Shown: positions 6,801 to 21,599 of the stretch, in pieces
Layout of the letters: each line of letters begins with the position of its first letter
How positions within the stretch are numbered: position 1 is the stretch's first letter
Source of the DNA: a bacterium
Lineage (GTDB): Bacteria > Patescibacteriota > Minisyncoccia > UBA6257 > GWB1-50-10
Assembly: GCA_030647415.1 (NCBI GenBank)
Contig: JAUSKB010000011.1
Coordinates: 21,858-85,857, forward strand
Reading direction: 5' to 3'
Length of the DNA stretch: 64,000 bases
Notes under the pieces: generated by a model
Told to the model about the DNA's origin: nothing
The model's database searches: none
Seen by the model: only the letters and a program-made list of their open reading frames with translations
Program-made: the position numbers and the translations under genes

Positions 6801-8720
6801 GACGGGCTGGGTCATGGAGACGCCGGAAACCGTGGAGGTCGGATTGGTGTAGACAATGGTCTTGGTGGCGATAACGTTTGACAATGTTGAACTCGCGGTG
6901 CTTGATGCGCTATTGAAGTTGTTCGTGCCTGCCACGTCATCGGTAAAGCTCAAGACGAAGGCGCTTTGGTCAGTAGTTGAGGAGTAGATAAGGCCGGAGA
7001 AGGTGGAGACGCCGTTCGAGGCGGTAGAGGTCGTCGTGCCAGAGAGAGTACCAGCGCCGCTATAGACCGCGGCCGTAACCACGTCAGTGTTGACCGCCGC
7101 ATCCAGCGTGTTCTGCGCGTTAACGAATCGAATGACGGGCTGGGTCATGGAGACGCCGGAAACCGTGGAGGTCGGATTGGTGAAGACGATAACCTTGGTG
7201 GCGACAACGTCCGAGGTGAGGGCGTTTGCATTGACAGCCGCAAGGTCGCCTTCGGCGCCACCAGCAACATCATCCGCAGCAAGGGTAAACGCTTCCTGGT
7301 CAACCGAAGCGGTGTACGCAAGACCGGAGAAAGTGGCGACACCAGAAACCGCGCTTGTGGTCGCATTCGCCAGGGTGCCGGTAGACGCTTCCGTCAGAGT
7401 AATCACCTCAACGAAATCAGTGTCAGTCGCGCCAGCTGCGTTTCTGGCTGTTACCACTGGCTGGGTGACCAACGCGATGCCGGAGGTGGCGGAGGCCGGT
7501 TGCGTGGTAAAGGCAAGCACGGTGGCAACAACGTTTGACAATGTTGAACTCGCGTCCACCGGGGCGCCATTAAAGTTATTCGTGCCTGCCGCGTCATCGG
7601 TGAAACGCAGGACAAAGGCGCTTTGGTCGGTTGATGAGGAGTAAAGAAGACCAGAGAAGGTGGAGACGCCGTTCGAGGCGGTAGAGGTCGTCGCGCCGGA
7701 CAATGATCCACTGCCGCTCTGGACTGAAACGGTTACCACGTCAGTGTTGACCGCGGCATCCAGCGTGTTCTGGGCGTCAACGAATCGAATGACGGGCTGG
7801 GTCATAGAGATGCCGGAAACGGTGGAGGTCGGATTAGTGAAGACGATAACCTTGGTGGCGACAACGTTCGAGGTGACGGCGTTGGCGGTAGTTGTAGCAA
7901 GGTTCGTACCCACACCAGCATCATCATCAGCGGTCAAGGTGAATGCCTCTTGGTCAACCGAGGCGGTGTAAATCAAGCTAGCGCCAGTAGCAAAATTAGC
8001 AACACCGGCGACGGCGGCCTCTGTGGCATTCGCCAGCGTGCCGGTAGCGGTTTCAGTCAGAGTAATAAGTTCTGTGAAATTGGTGTCAGTGTTTCCATAT
8101 GTGTCACGCGCCGTTACGACTGGTTGAGTCACCAGTGCGATGCCGGAGGTGGCAGAGGCCGGTTGGGTGGTGAAAACAATTTGCGTAGCAGTCCCCGGCG
8201 TAAGCGTCACGCCCGCAATTCCGCTCTGGGCAGTTTCACCTGATGCGTTACTTGTAATTGTGAAAGTTCCTGTCGCTCCAGAAGTTGTCGCGTTCGTGAT
8301 ACCAGTCGTTATTCGAAAAGTCGTCCCTGTCCCCGTGCCGAGATCATAACCACTCGTTAAGGTCGCTTTAATGGTGCTACTCGCCGAACTACCGATAACA
8401 CTATCTATGCTACGGTCCACACCGTCCACGCTGATAAAGCCGGAGGTTACACACCCGCTATTACAAATGGCTGAAGCCCCAAGCGATCCATTTGTGATTG
8501 CGTAGCCAGCGGGAAACGTAACGGTAAGAGTCGTCGCGGTTGATGTTGTATTTGTATCAAACGAAACATTGTAATCAGCGTTCGCGGCGCCTACCACCAA
8601 ATCAGCCGCAGCAGTCCCAGCCACCGAACCACCGCTCACTGTCGCGTGAGCATTCGGAACCAAAACAAAACCACCGATTAAAACGAACGCGACTACTAAA
8701 AGAAAACTAGATTTTTTCAT
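3834..8720 (-). CDS. Giant (about 1628 aa) Ser/Thr/Ala-rich secreted surface protein, S-layer-like. It carries tandem Ig-like repeats, Fn3 and Big-like domains.
   Basis: The track ORF is 3834..8843. The internal ATG at 8720 gives MKKSSFLLVVAFVLIGGFVLVPNAHA, a signal peptide. Two repeat types of about 100 aa alternate (FTTQPASATSGIALVTQPVVTAR... and KVIVFTNPTSTVSGISMTQPVIRFV...). The C-terminal domains include an Fn3 (SSVSIAWTTSE...LYHFRVLSSDASGN) and a Big-like domain. Confidence 0.8.
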   Translation of the reverse strand: MKKSSFLLVVAFVLIGGFVLVPNAHATVSGGSVAGTAAADLVVGAANADYNVSFDTNTTSTATTLTVTFPAGYAITNGSLGASAICNSGCVTSGFISVDGVDRSIDSVIGSSASSTIKATLTSGYDLGTGTGTTFRITTGITNATTSGATGTFTITSNASGETAQSGIAGVTLTPGTATQIVFTTQPASATSGIALVTQPVVTARDTYGNTDTNFTELITLTETATGTLANATEAAVAGVANFATGASLIYTASVDQEAFTLTADDDAGVGTNLATTTANAVTSNVVATKVIVFTNPTSTVSGISMTQPVIRFVDAQNTLDAAVNTDVVTVSVQSGSGSLSGATTSTASNGVSTFSGLLYSSSTDQSAFVLRFTDDAAGTNNFNGAPVDASSTLSNVVATVLAFTTQPASATSGIALVTQPVVTARNAAGATDTDFVEVITLTEASTGTLANATTSAVSGVATFSGLAYTASVDQEAFTLAADDVAGGAEGDLAAVNANALTSDVVATKVIVFTNPTSTVSGVSMTQPVIRFVNAQNTLDAAVNTDVVTAAVYSGAGTLSGTTTSTASNGVSTFSGLIYSSTTDQSAFVLSFTDDVAGTNNFNSASSTASSTLSNVIATKTIVYTNPTSTVSGVSMTQPVIRFVNAADALDTFANADVVTAEVLSGGGTVSGNTTSSASNGVATFSGLIYSSTTDQSAFVLRFADDAAGTNNFNSASSTASSTLSNVIATVLAFTTQPASATSGIALVTQPVVTARNAAGATDTDFVEVITLTEASTGTLANATEAAVAGVANFATSDDLIYTASADQEAFTLTADDVAGGAEGNLATVNANAVTSDVVATKVIVYTNPTSSISGVSMTQPVIRFVDAQNTLDALANTDVVTAAVYSGAGTLSGTTTSTASNGVSTFSTILYTATADQQAFVLSFTDDAAGTNNFNSASSTASSTVSNVVATKFLVTLATSTPTAGSADTMTLTAANAGDITDTGYSATGKTYNFLDASSTALSTHTSPNGTAPTIPASSTVQAAFSSGVASLATFTLTRAEVLGAITVNDATLTGTSTSVTVRHAAASTYTVTPSTATPTAGTAFNLTVTAKDTSGNTASGVNGTVYTGVVFISASATAPYDLSPESYPFVSGDAGTKTFTSGVTLNTAQTVTITARDYADATITSSTSVTVSASADTTAPTISNIQASSITSSSVSIAWTTSETSASSTIQYGTTSSYGSSTVSTTSTTSHSRGLTGLIASTLYHFRVLSSDASGNTGTSGDQTFTTIGSDTTAPTVSSQYPTNASTSVVATIQPYIEFSEELKVSSVNSNTAQLRKSSDDSVVTATVSLGNGGKRVIIAPLSSLTATTSYYLYASTSVQDATGNALATAYGASSTSAFTTAATDTTAPTVSAQSPVDGATTTAITASPTVTFSEAMDANTVNTNTVQLRLYSGDSVVSASYSMNDARTIVTIDPIANLANSTQYYLWVTGAKDAAGNTVTAYTTKASQEFTTTAESVTLAVTGISASSTFATANDTYASGWSWVFSVTVPTGETSTTMKFADWISGSNTIAAASNIRFYSAQSSNATSSSPITITAANTYPSAMTLNADLDANTAGRQIQIVVEAKVPTGSAGGSYSTSYGIQSQ
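5850..8200. repeat. Near-identical intragenic tandem DNA repeats inside the giant surface-protein gene, with a period of about 1 kb built from alternating 660-bp and 340-bp sub-units.
   Basis: A 60-mer (aacgaatcgaatgacgggctgggtcatggagacgccggaaaccgtggaggtcggattggtg) recurs at about 6130, 6790, 7130 and 7790. The shadow ORFs 6370..6654 and 7087..7644 encode near-identical peptides. Confidence 0.6.
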
Positions 8721-9141
8721 ATTTATTACGAACTGAATTCTATCGCAGGTTCTTCCGCCAGAGGCACCGTGCCTACCGGCGGGCAGGGATCCACCTTCGC
8801 GCTTGCAAACGACCTTTTGTTTTTTTGCGCGGGAAGGTTTCAAGAACCTGCGTTTATTGTTTTAGATAGTTATGCCGAATATTTCTTGATGCCTGAATGA
8901 CCTTTTTATAAGATCTGAAATTAGGGTTAGTTATCAAATCAATATCGTACGTACATTGTAGCATACCCACTATTCTTCACCTGTGGATATGTGCAAAATA
9001 TGCACATACTGCGCGAGCCACGCGATTATCCGCTGGCGCTGCTGGAACGCTGCGTCTGAAATAATAGGTAGTAATGGCAGGTGAGAGTGGCGAGTTCGCG
9101 AAGGCGGGCCCGACTCGCATACAGGCGAGGCAGGGTGTAGG

Positions 9142-9319: not shown

Positions 9320-10669
9320 ATGTCTCTTCCGAAGAAATTCGCATTGTTCCTCGGCGACATCCTGCTTCTCTACGTCGCGCTTGCGGGCGCCCTCCTTATC
9401 CGCTACGGCGTGGGCGAGTTCGGCGCCTCGTTTGACACCCATGTGGGACCCTTCTCGAAACTCTTCCTCCTCTGGCTCATCGTCCTCTACATCGCTGACC
9501 TGTACCGCCCCGCCGCGCTCCGGAGCCGCGCGGCCATCTGGCGGTCGCTCATCCGCGTCGTTGCGATCGCCGTCGTCGCCTCCACCGTCGTCTTCTATTT
9601 GTTCGGGAGTGAGTTCTCGCTCACGCCAAAAACGAACCTCCTCATCTTCGGCGCCCTCTTCCTCGCCCTTGACGCGCTGTGGCGAACGACGGTGCGCTCC
9701 CGCTTCGCGGCTGGCGCAGCAAACCTCATCGTCGTCGGCGCCTCGCCCTTGACTGCGGCAACCATCGCGCACCTCCGGGAGAACCCGCAGACCGGCTACC
9801 GCGTGGTCGACTGGCTCGAACGGCCGGATGCCGCGGCGCTTCAAACCCTGCCCGCGCGGATTGCCGAGCACCGGGCGGGCATGGTTGTCTTCGAACGGCA
9901 GACGCTCCTGAACCCGGATGCGCTCGCCGCCGCCTACCGCCTCCTGCCCCGCGAGGTCGCGCTCTTGACCTCGACTGATATCTACGAGACGACCTTTGAG
10001 CGCGTGCCGCTCGCAGAAATTGACGAGACCTGGTTCATCCGGAACATCACCACCCGTCGTCGCTTCTACGACGCGCTGAAGCGCGCCCTCGACCTCGCGG
10101 CATCCGCCATCCTGCTCGTCGTTCTCTCGCCCCTCTTCCTCCTCATCGCCCTCATGGTCGGCGCGACCTCGCGGGGCCCGGTCATCTTCCGGCAATCACG
10201 AATTGGGAAGCTTGGCCGGCCGTTCACACTTTATAAGTTCCGCATCATGGTCAAAAACCACGACGGCTCGCCCGTCACACTCACGAACGACCCGCGGTTC
10301 ACCGGCATCGGAAAATTCCTCAACTTTACCCACCTAAACGAGCTCCCGCAGCTCTGGAACGTCCTCCGCGGCGACCTGTCCTTGACCGGCCCCCGGCCGG
10401 AGAGCGCCGAGCTCGTCGCCCAGTACGCATCCCTCCCCTACTACGACATCCGCCACGTGGTGAAGCCGGGCGTGACCGGCTGGGCGCAGATCAACTTCAA
10501 GCCGAGCACCTCGCGCGAGGAGGCCTTCGAGAAACTCTCCTACGACATCTACTACATCGCCCACCGCTCGCTCCTCCTCGACCTCCTCATCATTTTCCGA
10601 ACCGTGAAACACCTCGTTGCCCCCGTCCGCCAGAACGCGCCCGCCGACCTTGGCGGACAAACCCGCTAA
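9320..10669 (+). CDS. Polyprenyl-phosphate sugar phosphotransferase (WbaP/WcaJ/EpsL bacterial sugar transferase family), the initiating enzyme.
   Basis: An N-terminal TM region and a C-terminal catalytic domain with ...KFRIM...DELPQLWNVLRGDLSLTGPRPE...GWAQIN. ATG at 9320. Confidence 0.9.
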   Translation: MSLPKKFALFLGDILLLYVALAGALLIRYGVGEFGASFDTHVGPFSKLFLLWLIVLYIADLYRPAALRSRAAIWRSLIRVVAIAVVASTVVFYLFGSEFSLTPKTNLLIFGALFLALDALWRTTVRSRFAAGAANLIVVGASPLTAATIAHLRENPQTGYRVVDWLERPDAAALQTLPARIAEHRAGMVVFERQTLLNPDALAAAYRLLPREVALLTSTDIYETTFERVPLAEIDETWFIRNITTRRRFYDALKRALDLAASAILLVVLSPLFLLIALMVGATSRGPVIFRQSRIGKLGRPFTLYKFRIMVKNHDGSPVTLTNDPRFTGIGKFLNFTHLNELPQLWNVLRGDLSLTGPRPESAELVAQYASLPYYDIRHVVKPGVTGWAQINFKPSTSREEAFEKLSYDIYYIAHRSLLLDLLIIFRTVKHLVAPVRQNAPADLGGQTR

Positions 10670-10673
10670 CCCC

Positions 10674-12185
10674 ATGCTCGCCCCCCTTCGCGAACGCTTC
10701 GGTCGGGGCACGGCTCGCCTCCGCCGGTTACTCTTTGAGAATCGGAGCACCCGCCAAACCATCGCGAAAAACATGTTCTGGTTGAGCTTCGGCCAAATCG
10801 CCGGCCGGCTCATCAGGGCGTCGGTCATCATCTACGCCGCACGCGTCCTTGGCGCCGCGGACTACGGGGTATTCTCCTACGCGCTGGGACTCGCCGGATT
10901 CTTCACGATATTCGCAGACGTCGGCATCAACAGCATTCTGACGCGCGAGGTCTCCCAGAAGCCGGCCGAGCGGTCGCAGTACTTTGCGACGGCGCTCTGG
11001 ATAAAGTTCGGACTCCTCCTCGCCACGACCGCACTTGTCGTTTTCGTCGCTCCGTTCTTCTCGAAGATCGAGGCCGCGAGGGCACTCATCCCCTTCGTCG
11101 CCCTCCTCACCATCTTCGACGGCATCCGCGAGTTCGTAAATTCGTTTCTCCGCGCCCTCGAACGGATGGAGCTCGAGGCGTTCGCGAACACGGTGACAAA
11201 CGTCGCCATCACCGCGGCGGGGTTCATCATCCTCTCATTCTCCGCGACCGCGTATTCGCTCACAATGGTCTACGCGCTCGCGGGAAGCGTCGGCGCGCTC
11301 TTCGCGGTGTTCCTGCTCCGGAAGGAGTTCCGTGGCGCCTTCTCGAACTTCCGCCGTTCCCTCCTCCGCCCGCTCATCACCGCCGCGCTACCTATTGCGC
11401 TCATGGGCCTCCTCGGCGCGTTTATGCTAAACACCGATATGATTATGCTGGGCTGGTTGCGAACACCGGAAGAACTCGGCTTCTACTCATCGGCACAGAA
11501 GATCGTGCAGGTGCTCTACGTCATCCCCGGCATCCTCGCCTCCGCAATCTTCCCCGTCTTGGCGCGTCTCATCGGTCAGGCGCGGCACCGCGACGTGCGC
11601 ACGCTTATGGAGCGCACGATCACCGCGGCGTTCCTCGTCGCGATACCACTCACCATCGGCGGCGCCGTTCTTGCGAAGCCCATCATGTCGTTCCTCTACG
11701 GCGCGGAGTACATCCCGGGTGCGGCCGCATTCCAGTTTCTCATCGCGACCACACTCATCGCATTCCCCGGAACACTCGTCGGAAATCTCATCCTTGCCTA
11801 CAACAAACAGAAAAGCGTCGTGTGGGGGGTCGCGCTGGGGAGTATTGGCAACATCGCGTTCAACGCCCTCCTCATCCCGATACTCGGTATTATGGGCGCG
11901 GCCATCGCCACCGTCATCGCGCAGTTTTTGAGCAACGGCTACATGTGGCACGTTATACGAAAGACGAACCAATTTGAGACATTCTCACACCTCAAAAAAA
12001 TCGTCGCGGCGGGTATCATCATGGGTGTCTGCGCCGGAATTCTAAATGTGCTCGGTATCCACGTGCTCGCGACCATTGCGGCCGCCGGCCTCATATACGC
12101 GGGGTTGCTCTGGCTCCTCAAAGAACCGGCCGTAGCCGAACTCATGGCGCTAAAACAGGCTATCCAGCCGAAACCGGAAATATGA
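10674..12185 (+). CDS. wzx: Wzx-type polysaccharide flippase (MOP superfamily), copy 1.
   Basis: A polytopic membrane protein with YAARVLGAADYGVFSYALGL. A paralog lies at 24599..26062. The track ORF starts at 10617 and overlaps the upstream gene. The ATG at 10674 lies 4 nt after the upstream stop. Confidence 0.8.
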   Translation: MLAPLRERFGRGTARLRRLLFENRSTRQTIAKNMFWLSFGQIAGRLIRASVIIYAARVLGAADYGVFSYALGLAGFFTIFADVGINSILTREVSQKPAERSQYFATALWIKFGLLLATTALVVFVAPFFSKIEAARALIPFVALLTIFDGIREFVNSFLRALERMELEAFANTVTNVAITAAGFIILSFSATAYSLTMVYALAGSVGALFAVFLLRKEFRGAFSNFRRSLLRPLITAALPIALMGLLGAFMLNTDMIMLGWLRTPEELGFYSSAQKIVQVLYVIPGILASAIFPVLARLIGQARHRDVRTLMERTITAAFLVAIPLTIGGAVLAKPIMSFLYGAEYIPGAAAFQFLIATTLIAFPGTLVGNLILAYNKQKSVVWGVALGSIGNIAFNALLIPILGIMGAAIATVIAQFLSNGYMWHVIRKTNQFETFSHLKKIVAAGIIMGVCAGILNVLGIHVLATIAAAGLIYAGLLWLLKEPAVAELMALKQAIQPKPEI

Positions 12186-12236
12186 ACAACCGCACCCAAG
12201 CGGTGCGGTATCCGCTTGCGGTATTGGCGGTTGTTC

Positions 12237-12262
12237 ACCCCGCCACGGCGGGGTTTTATTGT
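12237..12262 (+). terminator. Rho-independent terminator after wzx.
   Basis: CCCCGCC-acg-GGCGGGG followed by TTTTATT. Confidence 0.6.
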
Positions 12263-12321
12263 TTGTATCTCCATTCATCCGCGCCGCACGTGACGCGGTA
12301 TTCTGGAGACAAACAATAAAT

Positions 12322-12350
12322 TTGAAAAATCTCTTCCAGCGAATTATACT
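12322..12350 (+). promoter_or_regulatory. Sigma70-like promoter TTGAAA-N17-TATACT, with an AAGGAG RBS 8 nt before the ATG at 12396.
   Basis: The hexamers and spacing were read directly from the sequence. Confidence 0.5.
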
Positions 12351-12395
12351 AGCGCTAGTTCACTAAAACATTACATCATATAAGGAGATGCACCG

Positions 12396-12950
12396 ATGGG
12401 GAAAATCGGTATTTTTTTACGCGATTCAATCAAGGCGGGTCTCATCGCGACCCTCGTCATCCTCTTTCTCGTGTCGCTCGTCTCGGGAAAGACAATGCTA
12501 TCTCTATTCCTCGGCGTCGGCGGCTTGTTCGCCGCGACCGTCTGGGGACAGATCGCCTCGGGGCTCGGCGCGGCCGTGGCCGTCGGCATCGTGACCATGG
12601 CGGCGCGAAAACACAACGGCATGCGGGAATGGCTCATCAAGCGGATTCCCAAAAGGGTCCTTGGAGAACCAGTCGTGCGATGTCAGTTAGTCCCGGGAGG
12701 CGCAGTGCTGGTCGGGACGCTCATTAAGGTCGAGGGCAGGTTCGCGCATGTTCGACAGTTCAATGGGTGGATGCTCGCGATCACCTGGCTCAAGTGGGAA
12801 TTTCCCGTCGAGCTCATCGAGTACGTACGCGACGCAAACGGCAACCAGCGGATGGGGCTCGATCTTATTTTGGAGATCTGTGGATGGGGCGGCCAGAACG
12901 GGAACGGCGCGAACGGCTCGGTAAAAAAATCAGAGGCTCACGTGACGTGA
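12396..12950 (+). CDS. Hypothetical small membrane protein.
   Basis: N-terminal TM helices, a good RBS and promoter, and a terminator. No recognisable family. Confidence 0.55.
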   Translation: MGKIGIFLRDSIKAGLIATLVILFLVSLVSGKTMLSLFLGVGGLFAATVWGQIASGLGAAVAVGIVTMAARKHNGMREWLIKRIPKRVLGEPVVRCQLVPGGAVLVGTLIKVEGRFAHVRQFNGWMLAITWLKWEFPVELIEYVRDANGNQRMGLDLILEICGWGGQNGNGANGSVKKSEAHVT

Positions 12951-12965
12951 GCCTCTTTTAATTTT
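12933..12965. terminator. Bidirectional rho-independent terminator between convergent genes.
   Basis: A 23-bp perfect hairpin GAGGCTCACGTgACGTGAGCCTC followed by TTTTAATTTT. It overlaps the stop of 12396..12950. Confidence 0.7.
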
Positions 12966-14169
12966 GGTGGTCGCGGAGAAACCCGTGACATACGTCCGCG
13001 ATGCGATCCGCAGCGTGCCCGTCGCCGAAGAGCGTCCGTGGCACCGCCATGGCCGCATGGACTGTGGAGTCGTCCAGTATTTTCTCCGTCTCGAGGACAA
13101 TCCGCTCCGGATCGGTCCCCGCGAGTACCGCGGCACCCGCGGTGACCACCTCCGGACGCTCGGTGACGTCGCGCAGGATGACGACCGGCGTCCCCAGGAA
13201 CGACGCCTCCTCCTGCACGCCGCCGGAATCGGTGAGGATGACGACCGCCGTCCGCATGAGCCAGACGAAGAGCTCATAGTCGAGCGGCGGCACGATACAT
13301 ACCCCTGGAACCCCGTCGAGCGACGCGTGCAGGGCGCGCTCTACGTTCGGGTTCGGGTGCGCGGGAAGGACGATGCGGAGATTCGGGTACTGCGCCGAGA
13401 GTGTGCGGAGCGCCTGAAAGATGTTCGTGAGTCCCGTGCCGAAGCTTTCGCGACGGTGCGCCGTCGCGAGCACGAGGGTCGTTTGGCTAACGTCAATACC
13501 GGTCAATGACCTAAATCGTTCGGCGACGCGCACCGCCTCCCGCGGGTCCGCGAGGCGTTCAATTGTCGCACGAAGCGCATCGATGGCGGTGTTTCCTACC
13601 AGGTGGATTCGGCTTGGGTCAATTCCTTCACGTCGGAGATTCTGGGCCGCCTGCGGCGTGGGAGCAAAGTGAACGTCGGCGAGCCGGGAAACCAAGGTGC
13701 GGTTCATCTCCTCGGGGAACGGGCGGTACTTGTCGTACGTGCGGAGCCCCGCCTCCACATGCGCGATGGGAATCTTTAGGTGGAAGGCGAGGAATGCGGC
13801 GATGAAGACCGTCGAGGTGTCGCCCTGCACTACGAGAAGCTTCGGACGGCGGCGCAGGATGCGCAAAAATCGCAGTAGCCCCATACCGCTCCGAGCGAGC
13901 GACCAGAGGCGCCCCACAACACTTGCCGCCGACGAAAAGAGCGCCTGGTCGGACAGGGAGACGGGGAGGTCGTAGGTCGGCGTGAGCGAAAAGGCGCGGA
14001 GCGCCTGGTCGGCAAGCGCCGTATGTTGCCGAAAGAGGCAGGTCGCCACACGGATGCCGGCCTGCTCAAGCGCATGGACCACCGGCACGAGCTTGATAAT
14101 CTCGGGGCGCGTTCCGAACACCACGAGAACGTCGGGAGGGTCGCCGTGATGGCGCGCCGCACGGGTCAT
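12958..14169 (-). CDS. wecB: UDP-N-acetylglucosamine 2-epimerase (non-hydrolysing).
   Basis: VVFGTRPEIIKL ... HVEAGLRT motifs. The ATG at 14169 abuts the upstream gene stop. The track N-terminal extension is GC-rich read-through. Confidence 0.85.
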   Translation of the reverse strand: MTRAARHHGDPPDVLVVFGTRPEIIKLVPVVHALEQAGIRVATCLFRQHTALADQALRAFSLTPTYDLPVSLSDQALFSSAASVVGRLWSLARSGMGLLRFLRILRRRPKLLVVQGDTSTVFIAAFLAFHLKIPIAHVEAGLRTYDKYRPFPEEMNRTLVSRLADVHFAPTPQAAQNLRREGIDPSRIHLVGNTAIDALRATIERLADPREAVRVAERFRSLTGIDVSQTTLVLATAHRRESFGTGLTNIFQALRTLSAQYPNLRIVLPAHPNPNVERALHASLDGVPGVCIVPPLDYELFVWLMRTAVVILTDSGGVQEEASFLGTPVVILRDVTERPEVVTAGAAVLAGTDPERIVLETEKILDDSTVHAAMAVPRTLFGDGHAADRIADVCHGFLRDHQN

Positions 14170-15410
14170 GCGGGTTGACGCTCGCCACGCCCCTCCGCGA
14201 GCACCCGCTCCCACGCCGCGATACCGACCTTCTTCGAAAAGTGCGTCGTGAGGTACCGGTAGCCGTTCGCGCCGAGCGCGGGGAGTGTCGCACGGGCGTC
14301 GTAGGCGGCGCGAAATGCCGCGACGACTGCCGTGCGGTCATCGGACACCGCCGCGAACCCGCACTCGGCCTCACGAACGATTCGGAGCGCGTCGCTCTCC
14401 GTATGCACCGCGACGACCACCGGAACGCCCGCCGCCATGTACCCCATGAGCTTCGCCGGGACCGCCGGCGTCGTGTTCTTCGACGTGAGCGTTGCGATGC
14501 CCACGCTCATCGCCTTCACGAGCTCCGGATACTCCGCGCTGGAGACGAATGGTTTGAATATGACGTTTTCCAGTTTTCGTTCGCGAGCTACACCCTCGAG
14601 CCGCGCGCGGTCCGTACCGTCGCCCACGAAGAGGAACTTCACTCTCGGCACGGCGCGGAACGATTCCGCTGCATCGAGCACCAGGTCGAGCCCCTGCGAG
14701 GGACCCAAGACGCCCGCAAAGAGGAAGACGAAATCGTTCGCCAAACCCCATGCCGTGCGGAACCGGTTGCCGACCGGCGCCGCATCAAAGGGTACGGTGT
14801 CGATCCAGTGCGGAATGACGCGGAGCTTCGCCGCTGGAACGCTACGCCGGTCCGTGAGGTAGCGGGCGTGCAACGCAGACGGAACCACGATTGTCTCGGC
14901 GCGCCGGTACACCGTCCGCTCCATCGGGCCGAAGAAGAGCTGGATGAGCGGCTTCTGCCATGTGGCGACGAGGTCAATGCCGTTCTGGGGAAAAATGTCG
15001 TGAATGTTCGGGATAAATCGGGCGCCATAGCGGTGGGCGAGGCGCGAGGCGGCGAGCGCGAGCGGCAGGGGCGGGCTGTGGACGATGACTGCATCAAACG
15101 GGCCGCGAATCGAGCGTCGAACCGCCCGGGCGAAAACGCCGGGCAGGAGGAGCTGCGAGATGCCCCGAACGAGATACGGCACCTTGTGGTGCGGGAGCGT
15201 CGCAATGCGGACCACGCGCACGCCGCGGCGCACCTCGTCGCGCGGCACCTCCTCGGCGACCGTCCCCGGCGCGAGGTTGTAGGCGGGGACGGTCGTCGCA
15301 ACCGTCACCTCGTGGCCGTTCTCCGCGAGCCCTTCCGCTAACTCCGCCATGAGCTGGGAGGCCGAGCGGAGCTCCGGCGGGTAGGAATCAGTGACGATGA
15401 GGAGTTTCAT
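14166..15410 (-). CDS. GT4 (group 1) glycosyltransferase.
   Basis: A C-terminal GT-B motif region (EGFGLPVLEAMAAG-like: KLMGYMAAGVPVV). ATG at 15410. Confidence 0.85.
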   Translation of the reverse strand: MKLLIVTDSYPPELRSASQLMAELAEGLAENGHEVTVATTVPAYNLAPGTVAEEVPRDEVRRGVRVVRIATLPHHKVPYLVRGISQLLLPGVFARAVRRSIRGPFDAVIVHSPPLPLALAASRLAHRYGARFIPNIHDIFPQNGIDLVATWQKPLIQLFFGPMERTVYRRAETIVVPSALHARYLTDRRSVPAAKLRVIPHWIDTVPFDAAPVGNRFRTAWGLANDFVFLFAGVLGPSQGLDLVLDAAESFRAVPRVKFLFVGDGTDRARLEGVARERKLENVIFKPFVSSAEYPELVKAMSVGIATLTSKNTTPAVPAKLMGYMAAGVPVVVAVHTESDALRIVREAECGFAAVSDDRTAVVAAFRAAYDARATLPALGANGYRYLTTHFSKKVGIAAWERVLAEGRGERQPA

Positions 15411-15450
15411 GGAAATTTATTAAGAAACCGATGTGTAATGGTTTCTGTGT

Positions 15451-15906
15451 CTAGATAATTTCAGTCAATTCAGATAGTGAGTGGATGATAAAGGTTGGTG
15501 TTTTCGTTTCTTCATTTGGTAGCTCATTCTCAAATTTTCCTTTCTGTAACCATACCGTGGGATGATTGCGTAGATTGCCATATTTTATCCCACGAATAAT
15601 GCGGTCGTCGACGATGAGAATTTCTTCCCGCGGTAGATCGAGCTTCGCAACAACCTCGTCCAAAATTTTATCCTTATCTTCATCCGTAACCGCGGCTACC
15701 TCGAAGAACTTTCGTAGCGGGGAGTTCTCAATCTGCTTTGTCCGTTCCTCCAAACTCGCGTTTGCATGAATGCTCACAAGTGAAGCAACGGCCAACCGAT
15801 ACCCACGCTTCCGGCACAGTACCAAAATCTCCTCAGCTTCGGGAAATTCATTCTTCGTTTCCGAATCAAAAAGAGTTCTCCCCCAATCAAAAATAATTGC
15901 TTTCAT
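15451..15906 (-). CDS. HAD-superfamily hydrolase, a probable sugar-phosphate or nucleotide phosphatase. Low-GC gene.
   Basis: MKAIIFDWGRTLFD (DxD/HAD motif I), ...LIVDDR. The track start is TTG at 15954. An internal ATG (M17) is preferred. GC content is about 40%, against 65% in the neighbours. Confidence 0.65.
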   Translation of the reverse strand: MKAIIFDWGRTLFDSETKNEFPEAEEILVLCRKRGYRLAVASLVSIHANASLEERTKQIENSPLRKFFEVAAVTDEDKDKILDEVVAKLDLPREEILIVDDRIIRGIKYGNLRNHPTVWLQKGKFENELPNEETKTPTFIIHSLSELTEII

Positions 15907-16043
15907 ATTCCCTCCCTTGCATTCTAGACCCCAACACGGGCGACGCAAGCTCAAGACTGAATACAGAAGGCGCTACGGGGATAGTTGGCAAGATGGTATC
16001 TACAAAACCTTGTTTTGCTACATAGAGGGATTAGACTTCCTAT

Positions 16044-16523
16044 ATGGAGGATATGTCCAATTACGAGAAGTTGAGAGGGGACGCACAAAAGTTCTACAGC
16101 GAAATCGGAAGTGTCTTCTCCCCTGCTTTTAGCCAAAAAGTACAGTTCAGCTCGGAGGGATTTAACCATATTATCTTCAAAAGCCCTCGAACTGAACGGG
16201 AGAGGTCATCCCAGATTTTGCGATTAAAATTACTACCCTTAGCAATCAAACTCGTGGCAGACTCGACCACACACCAGGAATTCGAGGAGTCTTTGAAGGA
16301 ATTTGATGTTATGAGATTTAAGAAAAGGGCCAGAAAAACAATGATGGTCAGGTATTGGGGCATCATCGCAATCGTAGAGGGAAGAAAAATCAAGGTGATT
16401 ATCAGGAAGGTGGGCGATAATGGTGCCATGCATTTCTGGAGCATCGTGCCAGCCTGGGCAACCAACAAATATCGCGACCAAAAGCTATTCACCACAATGA
16501 AGGGGAACCCGGAAGAAGATTGA
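16044..16523 (+). CDS. Hypothetical protein (159 aa) with no recognised family, in a low-GC insert.
   Basis: A clean ORF followed by a strong terminator. Its composition differs from the flanking sequence. Confidence 0.45.
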   Translation: MEDMSNYEKLRGDAQKFYSEIGSVFSPAFSQKVQFSSEGFNHIIFKSPRTERERSSQILRLKLLPLAIKLVADSTTHQEFEESLKEFDVMRFKKRARKTMMVRYWGIIAIVEGRKIKVIIRKVGDNGAMHFWSIVPAWATNKYRDQKLFTTMKGNPEED

Positions 16524-16532
16524 AAACAAAAA

Positions 16533-16558
16533 GACCGCTCGCACGCGGTCCTTTTGTT
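16533..16558 (+). terminator. Rho-independent terminator.
   Basis: GACCGC-tcgcac-GCGGTC followed by CTTTTGTTGT. Confidence 0.6.
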
Positions 16559-16736
16559 GTGCCTGCCTTCAGCTTTGGTATTAGCCGAATAGGGCTGGCG
16601 CCCCACAAGCACAATCTTAGTATATACCATAGGTAATGGGAAGTTGTCCACATATCCAATATGAGTGGTTTTAATTGGGTAATTCACCCTTCTTAATCAT
16701 TCCATGGAGGATCCCAGAGTGGGAGGATACAAGTCC

Positions 16737-16801
16737 GACATTCCAATGTTCCGCGGAACATTGGAATGTCATACTGTGCCTGTTACCGTGTCTGTTACCG
16801 T
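16737..16801. promoter_or_regulatory. A 34-bp perfect palindrome (GACATTCCAATGTTCCG|CGGAACATTGGAATGTC) followed by a tandem 11-mer CTGTTACCGTG x2. It sits upstream of and overlapping the start of the oxidoreductase fusion gene.
   Basis: Perfect reverse-complement symmetry was verified base by base. The direct repeat lies at 16779-89 and 16791-801. Confidence 0.5.
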
Positions 16802-16840
16802 GCCTTTTCTGAATGGAGCGAGCGACGTATACTATATTTC

Positions 16841-18607
16841 ATGCGCATCCTGACCGGCAAGAAGTGGCGCGGGGGGTTCCTCGACTACCACCGGAACAAG
16901 AAGGAGTACCGAATCCAGGTGCTCGCATGGAAAAATCTTGAAAAACTCGAGAACGTCTACCACACCCGGCCCAAGAGCCTCCGCCTCCTCTGGAACTACC
17001 TCCCCGTCGTGGGGTTCGAAGGGCTCCTCACGAAGACCTGGTCTCGGCTCCGCGAGGACCGGCGGAACGAAAAGTACGTTGCCTGCGGCGTCGGTACCGT
17101 CATCGAGGGCGCCGGCGACGCACGATTCCCCATAGGTTCCATTGTCTGCTTCGTCGCGCCCTGGCACCCCGCGCTCGCGGAGCGCGTCGTCCTCCCCGAG
17201 GAGCTCGTCTTCGCCATCGATACGGCCGCGACGCCGAAGGTCCCCGACGGGACCATCCTCCACGCGCCGCTCGCGCGCGGAAAGAACGAGCTTCCCTGGT
17301 GGAAGCCGGTGCGCGCGTGGAGCACGTACGCCGGCATCGCGCTCTCCACGGAAACGATCTCCGAGCTTGAGCGAGGGCTCCGCATCGAGCTCTCAGCGAC
17401 CGACTGGTCACGGGCGGACCGCATGAACGCGTCCCACCCCGCGCCTGTCGCTCTCGTCCATGGCGGCGTCCCCACGTCAGGGCACTCAAACCAGCAACTG
17501 ACCCGCCTCGCCCGACGAGCGGGCGAGTCGAGGCGGGCAACCGATGGTTCTACAAGCTCACCATCTCTTCGAGAGCCTGAGGGCTCCTCAGAGCCTCGAA
17601 CGGCCCGAGCAGAGTCGAGGGACAACCGACAACCGAAGATGGGGATTCTCTACGGGTTCGGCAACTACGCGAAAACCAACATCATCCCCTACTCGAGGCC
17701 CTTCGTGAACATACGGACGGTCCACGAGATCGACCCCACGCAGATCGCCGGCGCGCACCGCGTGGAGCGATGGGAATCGTCCCCGTTCCCGGCAGAGAAC
17801 GAGCGGGCCGAGGTCTACTTCGTGGCGAGCTACAACCACACCCACGTCCCCATCACCCTCCACGCCCTTGCGCAGGGGGCCTACGTCGTCGTCGAAAAGC
17901 CCGTCGTGATGGACCACGACGAGCTCGCGGAGGTCGAGGTTGCGCTCCGGAAGGCGGGGCGGAAGCTCTTCGTCGGATTCCATAAACGGTACGGGCTTTT
18001 CAACCGGCTGGCGCTCGAGGACCTCAAGGTAGAGCCGGGCGAGCCCATCTCCTACCACTCCATCGTGTACGAGCTCATCCAGCCCGAGTTCTTCTGGTAC
18101 AACTGGCCGGTTTCGCGGAGCACCTTCCTCTCGAACGGCTGCCACCAGGTGGACCACTTCCTCCACCTGAATGGCTTCTCGAAGCCGAAAGACGCAGGAA
18201 TCAAGCTGCTCCAAGACGACGCCGTCGAGGTATGGATCGAACTTGAAAACGGGGCGTCCTTCACCACCACGTTCAGCGAGAAGGGCGTTTCGCGCGTCGG
18301 CCCGCGGGACCACGTGGAGCTGAAGGTACACGGCCGGAACGTGCGCATCACGGACGCCATCCGGTACCAGTCCGAGGATAACCACCGCATCATCCGGCGG
18401 AGGCGCATCGTGAAGACAAACAGCTACAAGGACATGTACCGGACCATCTGCGCGAAGATCGCGGCAAACGAACCGGGCGACACCATTGAGTCTGTCCTCA
18501 TCACCTCAAAAATCATGCTCGACCTCGAGGAGAAGCTCCAACACATGAAACATTGGGGTACTAGATACGATATCGCAAAGAAAGAGTTTGAAAAGCGTTT
18601 CTTCTAA
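16841..18607 (+). CDS. Fusion protein. An unknown N-terminal domain of about 250 aa is joined by a low-complexity linker to a C-terminal Gfo/Idh/MocA-family NAD(P) oxidoreductase, a putative sugar dehydrogenase.
   Basis: The C-terminal half has a Rossmann fold and the VVVEKP motif typical of Gfo/Idh/MocA. The linker is RRAGESRRATDGSTSSPSLREPEGSSEPRTARAESRD. The ATG at 16841 (MRILTGKKW) is preferred over the track start at 16766. Confidence 0.6.
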   Translation: MRILTGKKWRGGFLDYHRNKKEYRIQVLAWKNLEKLENVYHTRPKSLRLLWNYLPVVGFEGLLTKTWSRLREDRRNEKYVACGVGTVIEGAGDARFPIGSIVCFVAPWHPALAERVVLPEELVFAIDTAATPKVPDGTILHAPLARGKNELPWWKPVRAWSTYAGIALSTETISELERGLRIELSATDWSRADRMNASHPAPVALVHGGVPTSGHSNQQLTRLARRAGESRRATDGSTSSPSLREPEGSSEPRTARAESRDNRQPKMGILYGFGNYAKTNIIPYSRPFVNIRTVHEIDPTQIAGAHRVERWESSPFPAENERAEVYFVASYNHTHVPITLHALAQGAYVVVEKPVVMDHDELAEVEVALRKAGRKLFVGFHKRYGLFNRLALEDLKVEPGEPISYHSIVYELIQPEFFWYNWPVSRSTFLSNGCHQVDHFLHLNGFSKPKDAGIKLLQDDAVEVWIELENGASFTTTFSEKGVSRVGPRDHVELKVHGRNVRITDAIRYQSEDNHRIIRRRRIVKTNSYKDMYRTICAKIAANEPGDTIESVLITSKIMLDLEEKLQHMKHWGTRYDIAKKEFEKRFF

Positions 18608-18857
18608 ACTGAAAGGGTGCCCGCCCGCCGCGCCCGACACGCTTCGCGAGTCATGCGGGCGGGCATCGCTACCTGCCCGAAGCTGCTGCATCGCTGCAGG
18701 CGGGCGCGAAGCGTTGCGGGCGGGGGGCGACAAGTATGAGCGGGCGAAAGCGGAGTTCGAGCGCCGCTTCCGGTAAAGAGACTGCGCGGAGCGCACGCAA
18801 TGGCGGAGGCGGAGTTCTTTTTGCCATTTTCGCTAACTTTATATAGTTTCCTAAATA

Positions 18858-18886
18858 TTGCATAACTTTATAAAGTTTGATACTAT
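18858..18886 (+). promoter_or_regulatory. Promoter TTGCAT-N17-TACTAT for the Fic gene, with a leaderless or short-leader start.
   Basis: The hexamers were read directly. The -10 element overlaps the ATG at 18885, and the next ATG is at 18900. Confidence 0.4.
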
Positions 18887-18899
18887 GGCGATATCACGC

Positions 18900-19847
18900 A
18901 TGAAGCAAGCCAAACCCATGACCACTCGTCAAAAACTGGAAATCATCCGAAAGATGCTGGGACTGACCCAGACCAAGCTAGCCCAAAGGTTTGGGGTGTC
19001 CTTCGCGGCCTTCAACAGCTGGTGGACCGGTAAATCGAACCCGCGGCCGAAGATGCAGGCCGCCATCAACGAGCTGTTCCTGGAGGTGACCGGGCAGAAG
19101 ATAATCCCCGCCGACCAGCTCACCGCCAAGAAGCAGGCGTTGTCGCGGAAATCGGGAGAGCATGAAAACGTCGTGGCCGAAATTCTGGACAATCCGGATG
19201 TCCGCGACCAGTTCATATTGAAACTCACCTACCACAGCAACCGCATCGAAGGCAGTACGCTCACCGAGCCGGACACAGCAGCGATCCTTTTTGACAATGT
19301 CGCCTTGCCGAACAAAAGCATCATCGAACAGCTTGAAGCAAAAAACCACCAGACTGCCCTGAACTATCTTTTCGACTCTGTGGCCACGAAGGGGAAAATC
19401 AACGGGGCGCTGGTTCTCAAACTCCACGGCATTCTCATGAACGGCATAAAGTCGGATGCCGGCGCGTACCGCAACCATGGCGTGCGAATCACCGGTGTCA
19501 ATCTGCCGACCGCAAATTATGCAAGCGTACCGAAGTTGATGGCCGAAGCGATGCGCAAGACTGCCAAAAAAACGAAAGATGTCGTCGCACTCGTCGCCGC
19601 GGTGCACGGCACGTTTGAGCAGATCCATCCATTCTCCGACGGCAACGGTCGCACGGGCCGCCTGCTTATGGACGCCATGTTGCTTCAGGCAAATTTCGCC
19701 CCGCCCATCATCCGCCAAGAGCAAAAACGGCTCTACTACATGTATCTCTACAAAGCCCAGACCAAGGAGGATTACAGCCGGCTGGAGGATTTCCTCTGCG
19801 ATGCAATCGTGGACGGATTCAAAATCCTCGAGCGAGCTGATTCGTAG
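18900..19847 (+). CDS. Fic/Doc-family protein (putative AMPylase) with an N-terminal XRE-type HTH.
   Basis: The Fic core is HPFSDGNGRTGR. A class-II inhibitory motif SxxxEG (SNRIEG) precedes the core. The HTH is LGLTQTKLAQRFGVSFAAFNSWWTG. The track start at 18858 is TTG, and the true start is probably the ATG at 18885 or 18900. Confidence 0.7.
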   Translation: MKQAKPMTTRQKLEIIRKMLGLTQTKLAQRFGVSFAAFNSWWTGKSNPRPKMQAAINELFLEVTGQKIIPADQLTAKKQALSRKSGEHENVVAEILDNPDVRDQFILKLTYHSNRIEGSTLTEPDTAAILFDNVALPNKSIIEQLEAKNHQTALNYLFDSVATKGKINGALVLKLHGILMNGIKSDAGAYRNHGVRITGVNLPTANYASVPKLMAEAMRKTAKKTKDVVALVAAVHGTFEQIHPFSDGNGRTGRLLMDAMLLQANFAPPIIRQEQKRLYYMYLYKAQTKEDYSRLEDFLCDAIVDGFKILERADS

Positions 19848-20011
19848 AAAAAGGTCTCGCGTGATCTCTGTCAGCGAACAACTTGAACTGTTCATGGCAC
19901 TGTTCTTGTGGTTGTTGGGATACCCCCTAACTTCCCCTAGCCCGCAACAGTAACTCCCCCTAGCCCCCTCTTATGAATAAGAGGGGATATGCATTTCCCT
20001 CCTCCCCTTAC

Positions 20012-20407
20012 CTATAAGGGGAGGTTGGGAGGGGTTAAGTCCGCGATTGCTTCGCGGACTTTTTCATACACACCCTCCAGATTCCGCAACACGTCATTGT
20101 TCCAAAATCGAATCACCATGATGTTTTGCTCCCGAAGGTATGCGGTCCGAACCGCGTCAGAATCGCTATCAATGTGCTGGCTCCCATCAACCTCTATCGC
20201 CAATCGAAACGCCGGACAGTAAAAATCCAGAATGTACGCACCGATGCCGTACTGCCTGAAAAACTTCACTCCGTTCATACGCTTGCCACGAAGCACACCC
20301 CACAGCTTCCGTTCCGCCTCAGTCTGCGACCTGCGCAACGACCTGCGCCGTTCCTTTAGGTCCTCACTGTTATAGAGGTGGGGCATAATTCCAGTAACCC
20401 CTCTCAT
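20012..20407 (-). CDS. DUF559 / Vsr-like endonuclease-domain protein.
   Basis: FYCPAFRLAIEVDGSQH...VIRFWNNDV matches the DUF559 signature. Family A palindromic repeats flank it on both sides. Confidence 0.7.
   Translation of the reverse strand: MRGVTGIMPHLYNSEDLKERRRSLRRSQTEAERKLWGVLRGKRMNGVKFFRQYGIGAYILDFYCPAFRLAIEVDGSQHIDSDSDAVRTAYLREQNIMVIRFWNNDVLRNLEGVYEKVREAIADLTPPNLPL
20039..20064 (+). terminator. Candidate terminator for the Fic transcript. It lies inside the 3' coding end of the convergent DUF559 gene.
   Basis: GTCCGCG-attgctt-CGCGGAC followed by TTTTT. Confidence 0.35.
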
Positions 20408-20456
20408 TCTCCCCTTATGCTAAAGGGGGTACCCTCCTAACTCCCCCAACCCCCTC

Positions 20457-21599
20457 TTATTCTAAGAGGGGGGCGCCCCGGCGAAGGCGGACGATCTCCC
20501 GGTCGATGAGGAGCGGGTACCAGAGACCGTGCAGTACGTGGTACCGCCACCCCGTCGGACCGTCGAGAAACCCGCCGCGCAGAATGAACACATACCCGAA
20601 GTAGAGGACAGCGCGGAGAAAGAGCGGCAGTCGGTCGTACGCACCCCGCCTCCCCGCCCGCAGTCTCTGTTCGGTGTCCGCACCAACGGCAGCTGTAACC
20701 CCCCCTAGCCCCCCCTTATCGGTAAGGGGGGGGAGCGGACCTAACCCCACCTTATGAGCAAGGGGGGGGATTGGACCTAACCCCACCGTATCTGTAAGGG
20801 GGAGGATCGGGCCTAGCCCAACCGTATGAGCAAGAGAAGTGAGCGGAATCGACCTCCCCTTATCATAAGGGGAGGCAGGAGGGGTTACCCCTCTCCTCTG
20901 CCAATATTCTTTTGCTTTTAAGACGGCATACCGCCGGTGCTTCGCTTTCCAATCCGCGAGGCCGCGACGGTCGTCGTGCACAAGGTCGTGCTCCAGCTTT
21001 CCCGTCGCGCCGTCCACCGCGAAATGCTCGTCCATGAGTTGCCCCTCGCACCGCGCCACCGACCGCCGCATGAGCCGCAGAATCCAGACGGGATAGTACC
21101 CGCCGTGGCGGATCCACCGCCCATCCCACATGAACCGGCGTTTGAGATAGTAGCCGTTTATAGGTGATGTAGGCGCGTGCTCATCTTGTAAATTAACCTC
21201 GATACCCCTCATAACCCCTCCCAACCTCCCCTTATGATAAGGGGAGGCAGGAGGAGTTACTTCCTCGGCGTTTGTCGTTGGTTGTTTATTGTTTATTATT
21301 TGCCCAACCTCCTCCTTCAGCTCCTCCGTCGGATACTCGTCAGCGTCCACGAAGAGCACCCACTCGTTTCGGACCGGAAGCTCCCGGAGCGCCCAGTTCC
21401 GCTGCTCCACGAACCCGGCGAACGTATGCTCCACAACCGTTGCACCCGCCTCTCGTGCAATCGCCGCCGTCCGATCAATGGAGCCCGAGTCGAGAACCAC
21501 GACCTCGTCCGCCCACCCCACGACGTGCTCAAGGCACCGGGCGATGTTCGCCTCCTCGTCCCTGGTGAGCACAACAACTGCGACCGGCGCCACTTTCAT
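20457..21599 (-). CDS. GT2 glycosyltransferase (WaaE/KdtX-like) carrying in-frame palindromic-repeat insertions.
   Basis: The N-terminal GT-A fold is VVVLTRDEEANIARCL...VLDSGSIDRT...FVDADE. The C-terminal region has W.RHGGYYP..LRLMRR and GGFLDGPTGW. The repeat-encoded inserts are PPASPYHKGRLGGV and a PLTD/VGLGP tandem of about 60 aa. Confidence 0.75.
   Translation of the reverse strand: MKVAPVAVVVLTRDEEANIARCLEHVVGWADEVVVLDSGSIDRTAAIAREAGATVVEHTFAGFVEQRNWALRELPVRNEWVLFVDADEYPTEELKEEVGQIINNKQPTTNAEEVTPPASPYHKGRLGGVMRGIEVNLQDEHAPTSPINGYYLKRRFMWDGRWIRHGGYYPVWILRLMRRSVARCEGQLMDEHFAVDGATGKLEHDLVHDDRRGLADWKAKHRRYAVLKAKEYWQRRGVTPPASPYDKGRSIPLTSLAHTVGLGPILPLTDTVGLGPIPPLAHKVGLGPLPPLTDKGGLGGVTAAVGADTEQRLRAGRRGAYDRLPLFLRAVLYFGYVFILRGGFLDGPTGWRYHVLHGLWYPLLIDREIVRLRRGAPLLE

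Follow-up and report, generated by a model that had tools for sequence, protein, structure and literature searches.

A displaced native gene end behind a foreign 3' end in a Patescibacteria oxidoreductase gene, and a candidate miniature end-replacement cassette

An oxidoreductase gene with two 3' ends

The stretch of DNA analysed here, hereafter the window, comprises 64,000 nucleotides (nt) of contig JAUSKB010000011.1 (positions 21,858 to 85,857; assembly GCA_030647415.1) from a bacterium of the Patescibacteriota, and it carries a forward-strand oxidoreductase gene whose 3' end is present twice: once, AT-rich, at the end of the gene itself, and once more, GC-rich, as a relic a short distance downstream. 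The open reading frame (ORF) listed for the gene occupies 16766..18607 (+; 613 aa, stop codon taa at 18605-18607); since the family consensus opens with MRILTGKK, the true start is probably M26 (MRILTGKK...), at position 16841. A NAD-binding Rossmann domain (PF01408) lies at residues 297-405 (E=4.5e-10; 40.7 bits, cut-off 24) and is present in all close homologues of the protein. The native gene body, 16841..18538 (+), is of the Gfo/Idh/MocA type and belongs to a Patescibacteria family of ~540 aa. Homologues of the window protein number 383, the top ones being 67-68% identical over 96% of the length; the best 120 of the 383 are 56-68% identical, each spanning >90% of the length. The named ones come mainly from Patescibacteria, the nearest loci carrying labels such as Jorgensenbacteria, Paceibacterota and similar, and distant members (31-42% identity) are found in other phyla. 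The term 'fusion gene', under which an earlier note on this DNA had described the locus, is misleading: judging from the homologous sequences, the two-part ~540-aa architecture is common to the whole family and not peculiar to the window genome. The conserved C-terminus of the family reads ...KIMLDLEEKLQKMKGWGDRYEKAKEEFWSYFK, with the stop directly after it.

The functional C-terminus of the window gene reads ...HWGTRYDIAKKEFEKRFF (MLDLEEKLQHMKHWGTRYDIAKKEFEKRFF), followed by taa. Its last 22 codons (QHMKHWGTRYDIAKKEFEKRFF) and the stop, at 18539..18607 (+), form what is here called the new end, delimited by its codon composition and nearest relatives. Downstream, an ORF of 62 aa (18588..18776), in a frame other than that of the gene, ends ...AGGDKYERAKAEFERRFR, followed by taa. 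A C-terminal profile hidden Markov model (HMM; 30 positions, 120 homologues, window protein excluded) searched against the 2391 six-frame segments of the window recovered the gene's own end (E=4e-15) and, next to it, 18723..18773 (E=1.9e-5), the third best match being at E=1.2. The second match covers profile positions 14-30 of 30, and its stop stands right after the last profile position; the relic thus delimited, by the HMM and by composition, consists of 17 codons, GGDKYERAKAEFERRFR, plus taa (18723..18776, +) and lacks the QKMKGW codons. By its fit to the profile it is a true family C-terminus, in agreement with the proposal that the downstream peptide duplicates the gene's end with an equivalent stop, and the worry that the likeness might be insignificant among homologues is ruled out by the same score. 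Some figures of that proposal need adjusting. The count of nine identical residues in 13 holds in substance and is slightly generous, the two peptides being identical at 8/14 positions, with 3 more conservative (9/16 with the preceding G), and the gap put at about 130 bp measures 115 nt between the stop and the first codon that matches. The description of the copy as recoded is accurate, the new end and the relic being only 47% identical in DNA over 45 nt.

Judging from its reading frame, other than that of the gene, and from the lack of a credible start, the relic is non-coding, and as an independent ORF it has no Pfam match. The 62-aa ORF 18588..18776 should hence not be annotated as a gene, whichever origin is accepted for it. 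A scan of every long ORF found no other real gene in the window with a duplicate of its tail within 700 nt downstream. The top scores in that scan went to antisense ORFs of a 1669-aa minus-strand ORF with internal repeats (3834-8843).

A gene whose 3' end is repeated a short way downstream also has the geometry of a diversity-generating retroelement, in which the gene end would be the variable repeat and the downstream copy the template repeat; such retroelements are common in this bacterial group. Here, however, the two copies are 47% identical and differ by all substitution types, not only at the adenines of one copy, no reverse transcriptase is found among the neighbours, and the target is an oxidoreductase rather than a ligand-binding fold. 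On the substitution pattern and the missing reverse transcriptase nearby, this explanation was rejected, its probability being close to nil.

Composition tells which of the two ends is at home. The GC content at third codon positions (GC3) is 0.85 in the gene body (16841..18538) and 0.83 in the relic, and 0.43 in the new end (18539..18607); it falls from ~0.9 to 0.43 at ctc|caa (18538/18539), where the last body codon, ctc (18536-18538), is followed by caa cac atg aaa cat tgg ggt act aga. Neighbouring genes of the polysaccharide locus (9320-15410) have a GC3 of 0.77-0.85. Nearest relatives are incongruent in the same manner. Over its last 170 codons the body is ~80% identical in nucleotide sequence to loci L009 and L013, and the top DNA matches of the relic are L025, L020, L009 and L013; the new end is nearest (69-71%) to the AT-rich relatives L146, L081 and L012, whose proteins end ...FF or ...FS, and is 71% identical to the gene ends of L146 and L081, vs 47% to the relic. 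From the GC3 contrast and the incongruent relatives it follows that the downstream copy is the native end, and that the functional end is a foreign import not yet adapted to the composition of its host. The new end was joined in frame, at the homologous position, and retains all the invariant or near-invariant C-terminal residues (W, Y, A, K, F), so that the protein, as far as its sequence tells, should still work. The AT-rich versus GC-rich contrast that the earlier note had pointed out is thus real, and GC3, nearest relatives and conserved residues all agree with both of its suggestions, namely that the original 3' end is the displaced, GC-rich copy and that the AT-rich one arrived with inserted DNA.

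Within the gene body most 15-codon windows have a GC3 of 0.8-1.0, with a dip to ~0.5 in the linker. A replacement also of the low-GC 5' end of the gene was considered and rejected: GC3 there is 0.87-1.0, the low GC being due to amino-acid composition. The linker, between the N-terminal and Rossmann domains, is of low complexity and ~45-50 aa longer in the window protein than in its homologues (...SGHSNQQLTRLARRAGESRRATDGSTSSPSLREPEGSSEPRTARAESRDNRQPK; 17470-17650), its GC3 of 0.47-0.67 lying below that of the rest of the gene.

The spacer and a second case in a distant genome

The new end and the relic are separated by an imperfectly palindromic spacer of 115 nt and ~70% GC (18608..18722, no strand assigned), recognised by inverted repeats whose arms lie at 18628-18648/18705-18725 and 18618-18628/18655-18665. 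It contains a left block, GAAAGGGTGCCCGCC (18611-18625), and a right block, AGGCGGGCGCGAAGCG (18698-18713), both shared with the spacer of the second case presented below. No second copy of the spacer occurs in the 64-kb window or in 753 kb of related loci, and its GCCCGCC palindrome is likewise single-copy in the window, in 21.6 kb around the second case and in the 753 kb. On its left side the insert is joined seamlessly, in frame, at ctc|caa, and its right join falls within a G-rich run (gggg|ggc gac) that allows no microhomology to be assigned.

The second case was met when the C-terminal profile was run over the flanks (<=10 kb on each side) of 80 loci of the family, 45 of them from related Patescibacteria; this search yielded one further relic only, at locus L006 of a Patescibacteria genome of 38% GC, some 25 GC points away from the window genome. 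The gene of L006 ends ...KWKDRYTVAKQEFRKYFF (...DRYTVAKQEFRKYFF*), then taa, and is followed by a spacer of 54 nt that forms a near-perfect hairpin (GCCCGCCTAAATTT...AAATTTAGGCGGG). Next comes a relic that starts GAC AGA TAC, corresponding to DRYKKAKEEFSNYFFK, then taa, and this stop is immediately followed by a canonical terminator, a hairpin plus T-run. In the search of 59,335 segments the relic obtained E=1e-4, and at the nucleotide level it is 84% identical to the real gene end of L147. It is in frame with the gene, behind a second stop, and the window relic is in a different frame. The insert measures ~185 bp in the window and ~120 bp in L006, and in both the native gene is broken before the same D-[KR]-Y codons.

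The two spacers have matching ends. In both, GAAAGGG stands 2-4 nt past the stop and is followed, after 1-3 nt, by GCCCGCC, and both carry AGGCGGG-YG-(CG)-AAGCG close to their right end. For the left-block motif there is a single occurrence in the window (0 expected in shuffles) and a single one in 83 loci, that of L006, each directly after the stop of this oxidoreductase gene; the right-block motif has two matches, in L013 and L021, both within unrelated coding sequence. A local alignment as good as that between the two spacers was obtained with only 2-5 of 2000 shuffles (p ~0.001-0.0025), and the 21.6 kb of the L006 locus, of 38% GC, contain no further GCCCGCC. By sequence, the window spacer looks like an expanded form of the L006 hairpin, with several GCCCGCC/GGCGGGC units.

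Several known identities for the spacers were considered and discarded. Beyond noise, Rfam has no match at E<=10 for the window or for L006, and the window holds no tRNA or tmRNA target. The RYYYAAC/GTTRRRY core sites of an integron attC are absent, the window having 5-6/7 matches at each end and the right end of L006 lacking the GTT. Reading the right half of the spacer as garbled native codons (EKLQ..K.W) gives suggestive 6-mers on E-K-L in both genomes; because it calls for several ad hoc indels, this reading was not adopted.

The second case bears on two further explanations. One is an artefact of assembly, by which the gene-end alleles of co-existing strains would have been concatenated, as could be imagined for an uncultured-type genome of mosaic composition. 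Yet the AT-rich version and its GC-rich counterpart have no long k-mers in common at which an assembler could have switched, a concatenation of alleles would leave the 115-nt palindromic spacer unexplained, and the same layout recurs in a genome that is unrelated and stems from a different study; two public records show it there, the L006 structure being identical in a second one (L085, 100% identical, same sampling site). Little credence can therefore be given to an artefact. Comparably little can be given to the other, a functional gene with two ends, in which readthrough, frameshift, bypass or repeat deletion would produce an alternative C-terminus and the spacer would act as a regulatory RNA. 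Both relics are intact to their stop codons, and the L006 region folds far better than its shuffles (z=-6.2). Against it, the window region folds little better than shuffles (z=-1.6) and has no Rfam match, the relic does not have the same frame with respect to the gene in the window and in L006, and the QKMKGW codons are missing from the relic.

A single ancient insertion, inherited vertically, would make the clade of proteins ending '...FF*' its descendants, most of which would later have lost spacer and relic. The window protein and that of L006 do fall in or near this subclade, and both new ends are of the FF type. An old new end would, however, have reached the GC3 of its host (0.85 rather than 0.43), and an old relic would not still fit the profile over 17 codons, nor have kept its native codon usage and its stop. 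Moreover, P0004/L012 and P0007/L082, which are closer to L006 than the window is (79-81% aa identity, C-terminal tail excluded), have no insert, and the L006 event is therefore lineage-specific. Common descent from one old insertion is accordingly very unlikely.

Further carriers were sought among '...FF*' homologues and in sequence collections. The former set added 9 loci (contigs carrying 8 proteins; the flanks of the two loci of P0017 were excluded), and P0001, P0007, P0025, P0015, P0055 and P0056 were rejected as carriers, having neither such a hairpin nor a relic. Neither is present in the short flank of P0024, whose tail (...AKQEFRKYFF*) is the nearest to the new end of L006; its gene is followed by AAAAGCGCTGGGGGTAACGAAG and next by a perfect 11-bp palindrome (L150 1799-1850), where the contig ends, 52 nt past the stop, so that P0024 may yet be a carrier. 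A metagenome scan for TTCTAA-GAAAGGG-GCCCGCC gave 36 matches, of which only L085 is relevant, the others belonging to one human-gut gene or to a handful of unrelated sequences. Among viral sequences, scans with the hairpin or with a degenerate pattern of the gene end returned no relevant match and no viral contig with a fragment of the gene end. One metagenome contig, very AT-rich, harbours at L111 575-790 a GC-rich island of ~215 nt, not adjacent to the oxidoreductase gene, which starts GAAAGGGCTCGCCCGCC-ATCCAT-GGCGGGCGCTTCG, near-identical to the start of the L006 spacer, and has further ACTTCG repeats; save for a sub-threshold CRISPR-repeat-like hairpin it has no Rfam match. It may represent a relative of the palindrome in a different setting, or the likeness may be due to chance.

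How the gene end may have been exchanged

A displaced and recoded gene end is a classic footprint, left by elements whose integration spares the gene that they enter. At this locus the footprint is seen and the element is almost absent, for the insert is <200 bp long, carries no enzyme gene and sits at the same codon in two genomes. The reading favoured here, with moderate confidence, is that the insert is a small cassette for gene-end replacement, non-autonomous and laterally transferable, and that it has invaded this gene on two or more occasions. An insertion of ~185 bp (18539..18722) would have severed the native last codons from the gene and brought along, in frame, 22 last codons and a stop of its own, which stem from an AT-rich relative within the gene family; the GC-rich palindromic spacer would follow that stop, so that the protein stays complete, and the native last 17 codons, their stop and terminator would be left just downstream as an untranslated relic. 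The relic would be functionless and would look intact only because the event is recent. 

Two routes may be envisaged and are weighted about equally. In route (a) the cassette would be a minimal or decayed site-specific integrating element, the conserved ends of the palindrome being its recombination sites; as a variant, an enzyme encoded elsewhere might act on the palindrome or on the target, in the manner of the cis-mobilizable elements (CIMEs) considered below. In route (b) it would have been copied in after DNA uptake, recombining via the gene body on the left and via an old relic or native end on the right.

Established systems provide a partial precedent. Phage 21 and e14 in icd of E. 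coli integrate at the 3' end of the gene and bring a replacement end, leaving a displaced icd remnant, and ICESt1/ICESt3 in the fda gene of Streptococcus are likewise integrating elements that bring a replacement gene end. As with the icd and fda elements, diverged codons borne by the insert end the gene, the host's own end is displaced to the far side, and the end of a conserved gene is targeted at the same site in different genomes (here the window and L006); unlike the present insert, those elements extend over kilobases, carry an integrase gene and share an identical or near-identical core between their two junctions. Integration by tyrosine recombinases at gene 5' or 3' ends has been reviewed (PMC5704250). 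A gene-less insert between a replacement and a displaced end, at a repeatedly used site and in need of a recombinase acting in trans, would resemble CIMEs (PMC5704250), yet the known examples of CIMEs far exceed it in size and are identified through att sites that they have in common with a known autonomous element. In the limited sampling of 45 Patescibacteria loci plus the extra loci (<=10 kb) and of viral contigs, neither a partner element nor an att core of this kind was found. Repeats of the repetitive extragenic palindromic (REP) or miniature inverted-repeat transposable element (MITE) type are also short imperfect palindromes with conserved ends and a variable centre, those of ~36 nt in the window and in L001, L002 and L009, described below, being an example; as here, such a palindrome stands right after the stop of this gene in several genomes. 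Unlike these repeats, the GCCCGCC palindrome is single-copy in the DNA examined and comes with a replacement end and a relic.

A number of observations weigh against a mobile cassette. Among the gene-sized ORFs within ~10 kb on either side there is no recombinase, integrase or reverse transcriptase, their Pfam assignments being glycosyltransferases, epimerase, flippases, HAD-like hydrolase, Fic and DUF559; two ORFs lack a confident match (12396..12950, none; 16044..16523, below threshold). No identical att core is present, the longest string common to both junctions being of 6 nt (GAAGCT in the window, AAAATT in L006), which is the length expected by chance and falls in both on E-K-L codons. 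Nor is there a parent element, no full-size island standing between a new end and a relic in the 45 loci. Only two cases are on record, with no third in the 45 related loci, in the '...FF*'-clade loci or in the one metagenome scan, and their new ends are only 56% identical to each other in nucleotide sequence. Moreover, a spacer of 70% GC beside a new end of 37% GC would be odd for a single donor fragment. Finally, GC-rich hairpins preceded by GAAAGGG are also met, as ordinary terminator-like hairpins, in GC-rich phages, and the similarity of the two spacers could therefore be partly convergent. The attB/attP-style element proposed in the earlier note, for which integrase and att sites nearby would have been the sign, is thus not demonstrated: the insert is of ~185 bp, and neither sign was found.

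The main rival holds that two unrelated accidents took place, DNA of a relative having been patched in by homology-facilitated or short-patch illegitimate recombination. Both processes are known from Acinetobacter and Streptococcus after natural transformation. The crossover would lie in the conserved ...MLDLEEKLQ, the illegitimate join just upstream of the native end, and the likeness of the spacers would be chance or convergence. Such recombination, too, introduces the DNA of a diverged homologue, with an in-register join on one side and microhomology on the other, and host DNA can remain adjacent. The lack of a recombinase, an att core or further copies, the 56% identity of the new ends and the occurrence of GAAAGGG-GCCCGCC...GGCGGG hairpins in unrelated GC-rich phage contigs are all in its favour, and at the left junction identity is patchy (GAGAAGCT/CAA), which would be compatible with a join through microhomology. 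It is a one-off process, however, and recurrence at the same codon with a related spacer in distant genomes is not expected of it. Although no selection acts on the relic, the right junctions of the two genomes fall within two codons of the same position; the left block, 15 nt long, stands 2-4 nt past the stop in both and a second shared block at the right end; and no donor is visible, since a hairpin of this type follows the stop in none of the '...FF*' relatives examined. The junction codon and the spacer ends, shared in the same positions, weaken the two-accidents explanation, which is regarded as unlikely, with distinctly more weight than the artefact, the two-ended gene or the ancient insertion. 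Were the locus a mere repair scar, it would nonetheless be a clean natural case of foreign DNA patched into a conserved gene of an uncultured lineage.

A bolder form of the cassette hypothesis may tentatively be put forward, as a possibility somewhat stronger than the pair of accidents and still doubtful: that miniature, gene-less end-replacement cassettes of the Patescibacteria form an undescribed class, homing into the same codon of distant genomes. Each cassette would consist of the recoded last ~20 codons of the polysaccharide-locus oxidoreductase and of the palindrome GAAAGGG..GCCCGCC ... GGCGGGYG..AAGCG, and an unlinked recombinase or nuclease would recognise the palindrome or the native target, the gene not being inactivated. 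Very few mobile elements have been described in Patescibacteria, for which no genetic tools are known; a true mobile cassette would be a minimal example of gene-safe insertion and a handle on recombination in these organisms.

The 3' flank and the gene neighbourhood

Past the relic, the native 3' flank (18777..18835, +), delimited by a terminator scan and by composition, includes a weak terminator-like hairpin (18808-18825) with a T-rich tail. The GC-rich block stops within this flank, ahead of the AT-rich operator of a Fic gene. That gene, encoding helix-turn-helix (HTH) and Fic domains, lies at 18858..19847 (region 18823-19847) and is preceded by an AT-rich inverted repeat, with arms at 18823-18848 and 18864-18889, and by a direct repeat, TAACTTTATATAGTTT / TAACTTTATAAAGTTT, the arrangement being putatively operator-like. 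Downstream of it is a gene for a DUF559 (Vsr-like) endonuclease (20012-20407). At L082 a ParE/Phd toxin-antitoxin pair occupies the equivalent place downstream of the homologous gene.

The 3' flank of this oxidoreductase gene is busy in many genomes, and L001, L002 and L009 have small palindromic repeats directly past the stop of the homologue. Repeats of the same kind, ~36 nt long and of the form TAACCCC..CCCCTTAT-nnn-TAAGGGG, occur in the window at 19928-20054, 20388-20474, 20689-20884 and 21205-21256, on both sides of the DUF559 gene and in frame inside a GT2 gene (20457..21599); four tandem copies in the latter (20704-20883) are translated as PPxSPYxKGRLGGV-like peptides.

Upstream, an AT-rich islet (15411-16840; 43-50% GC, GC3 0.47-0.57) separates the GC-rich GT4 gene from the oxidoreductase gene. 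It contains a HAD-like hydrolase gene (15451..15954, -) and an ORF of 159 aa (16044..16523, +) with a weak LPD3 match only, and has the look of DNA inserted into the polysaccharide locus.

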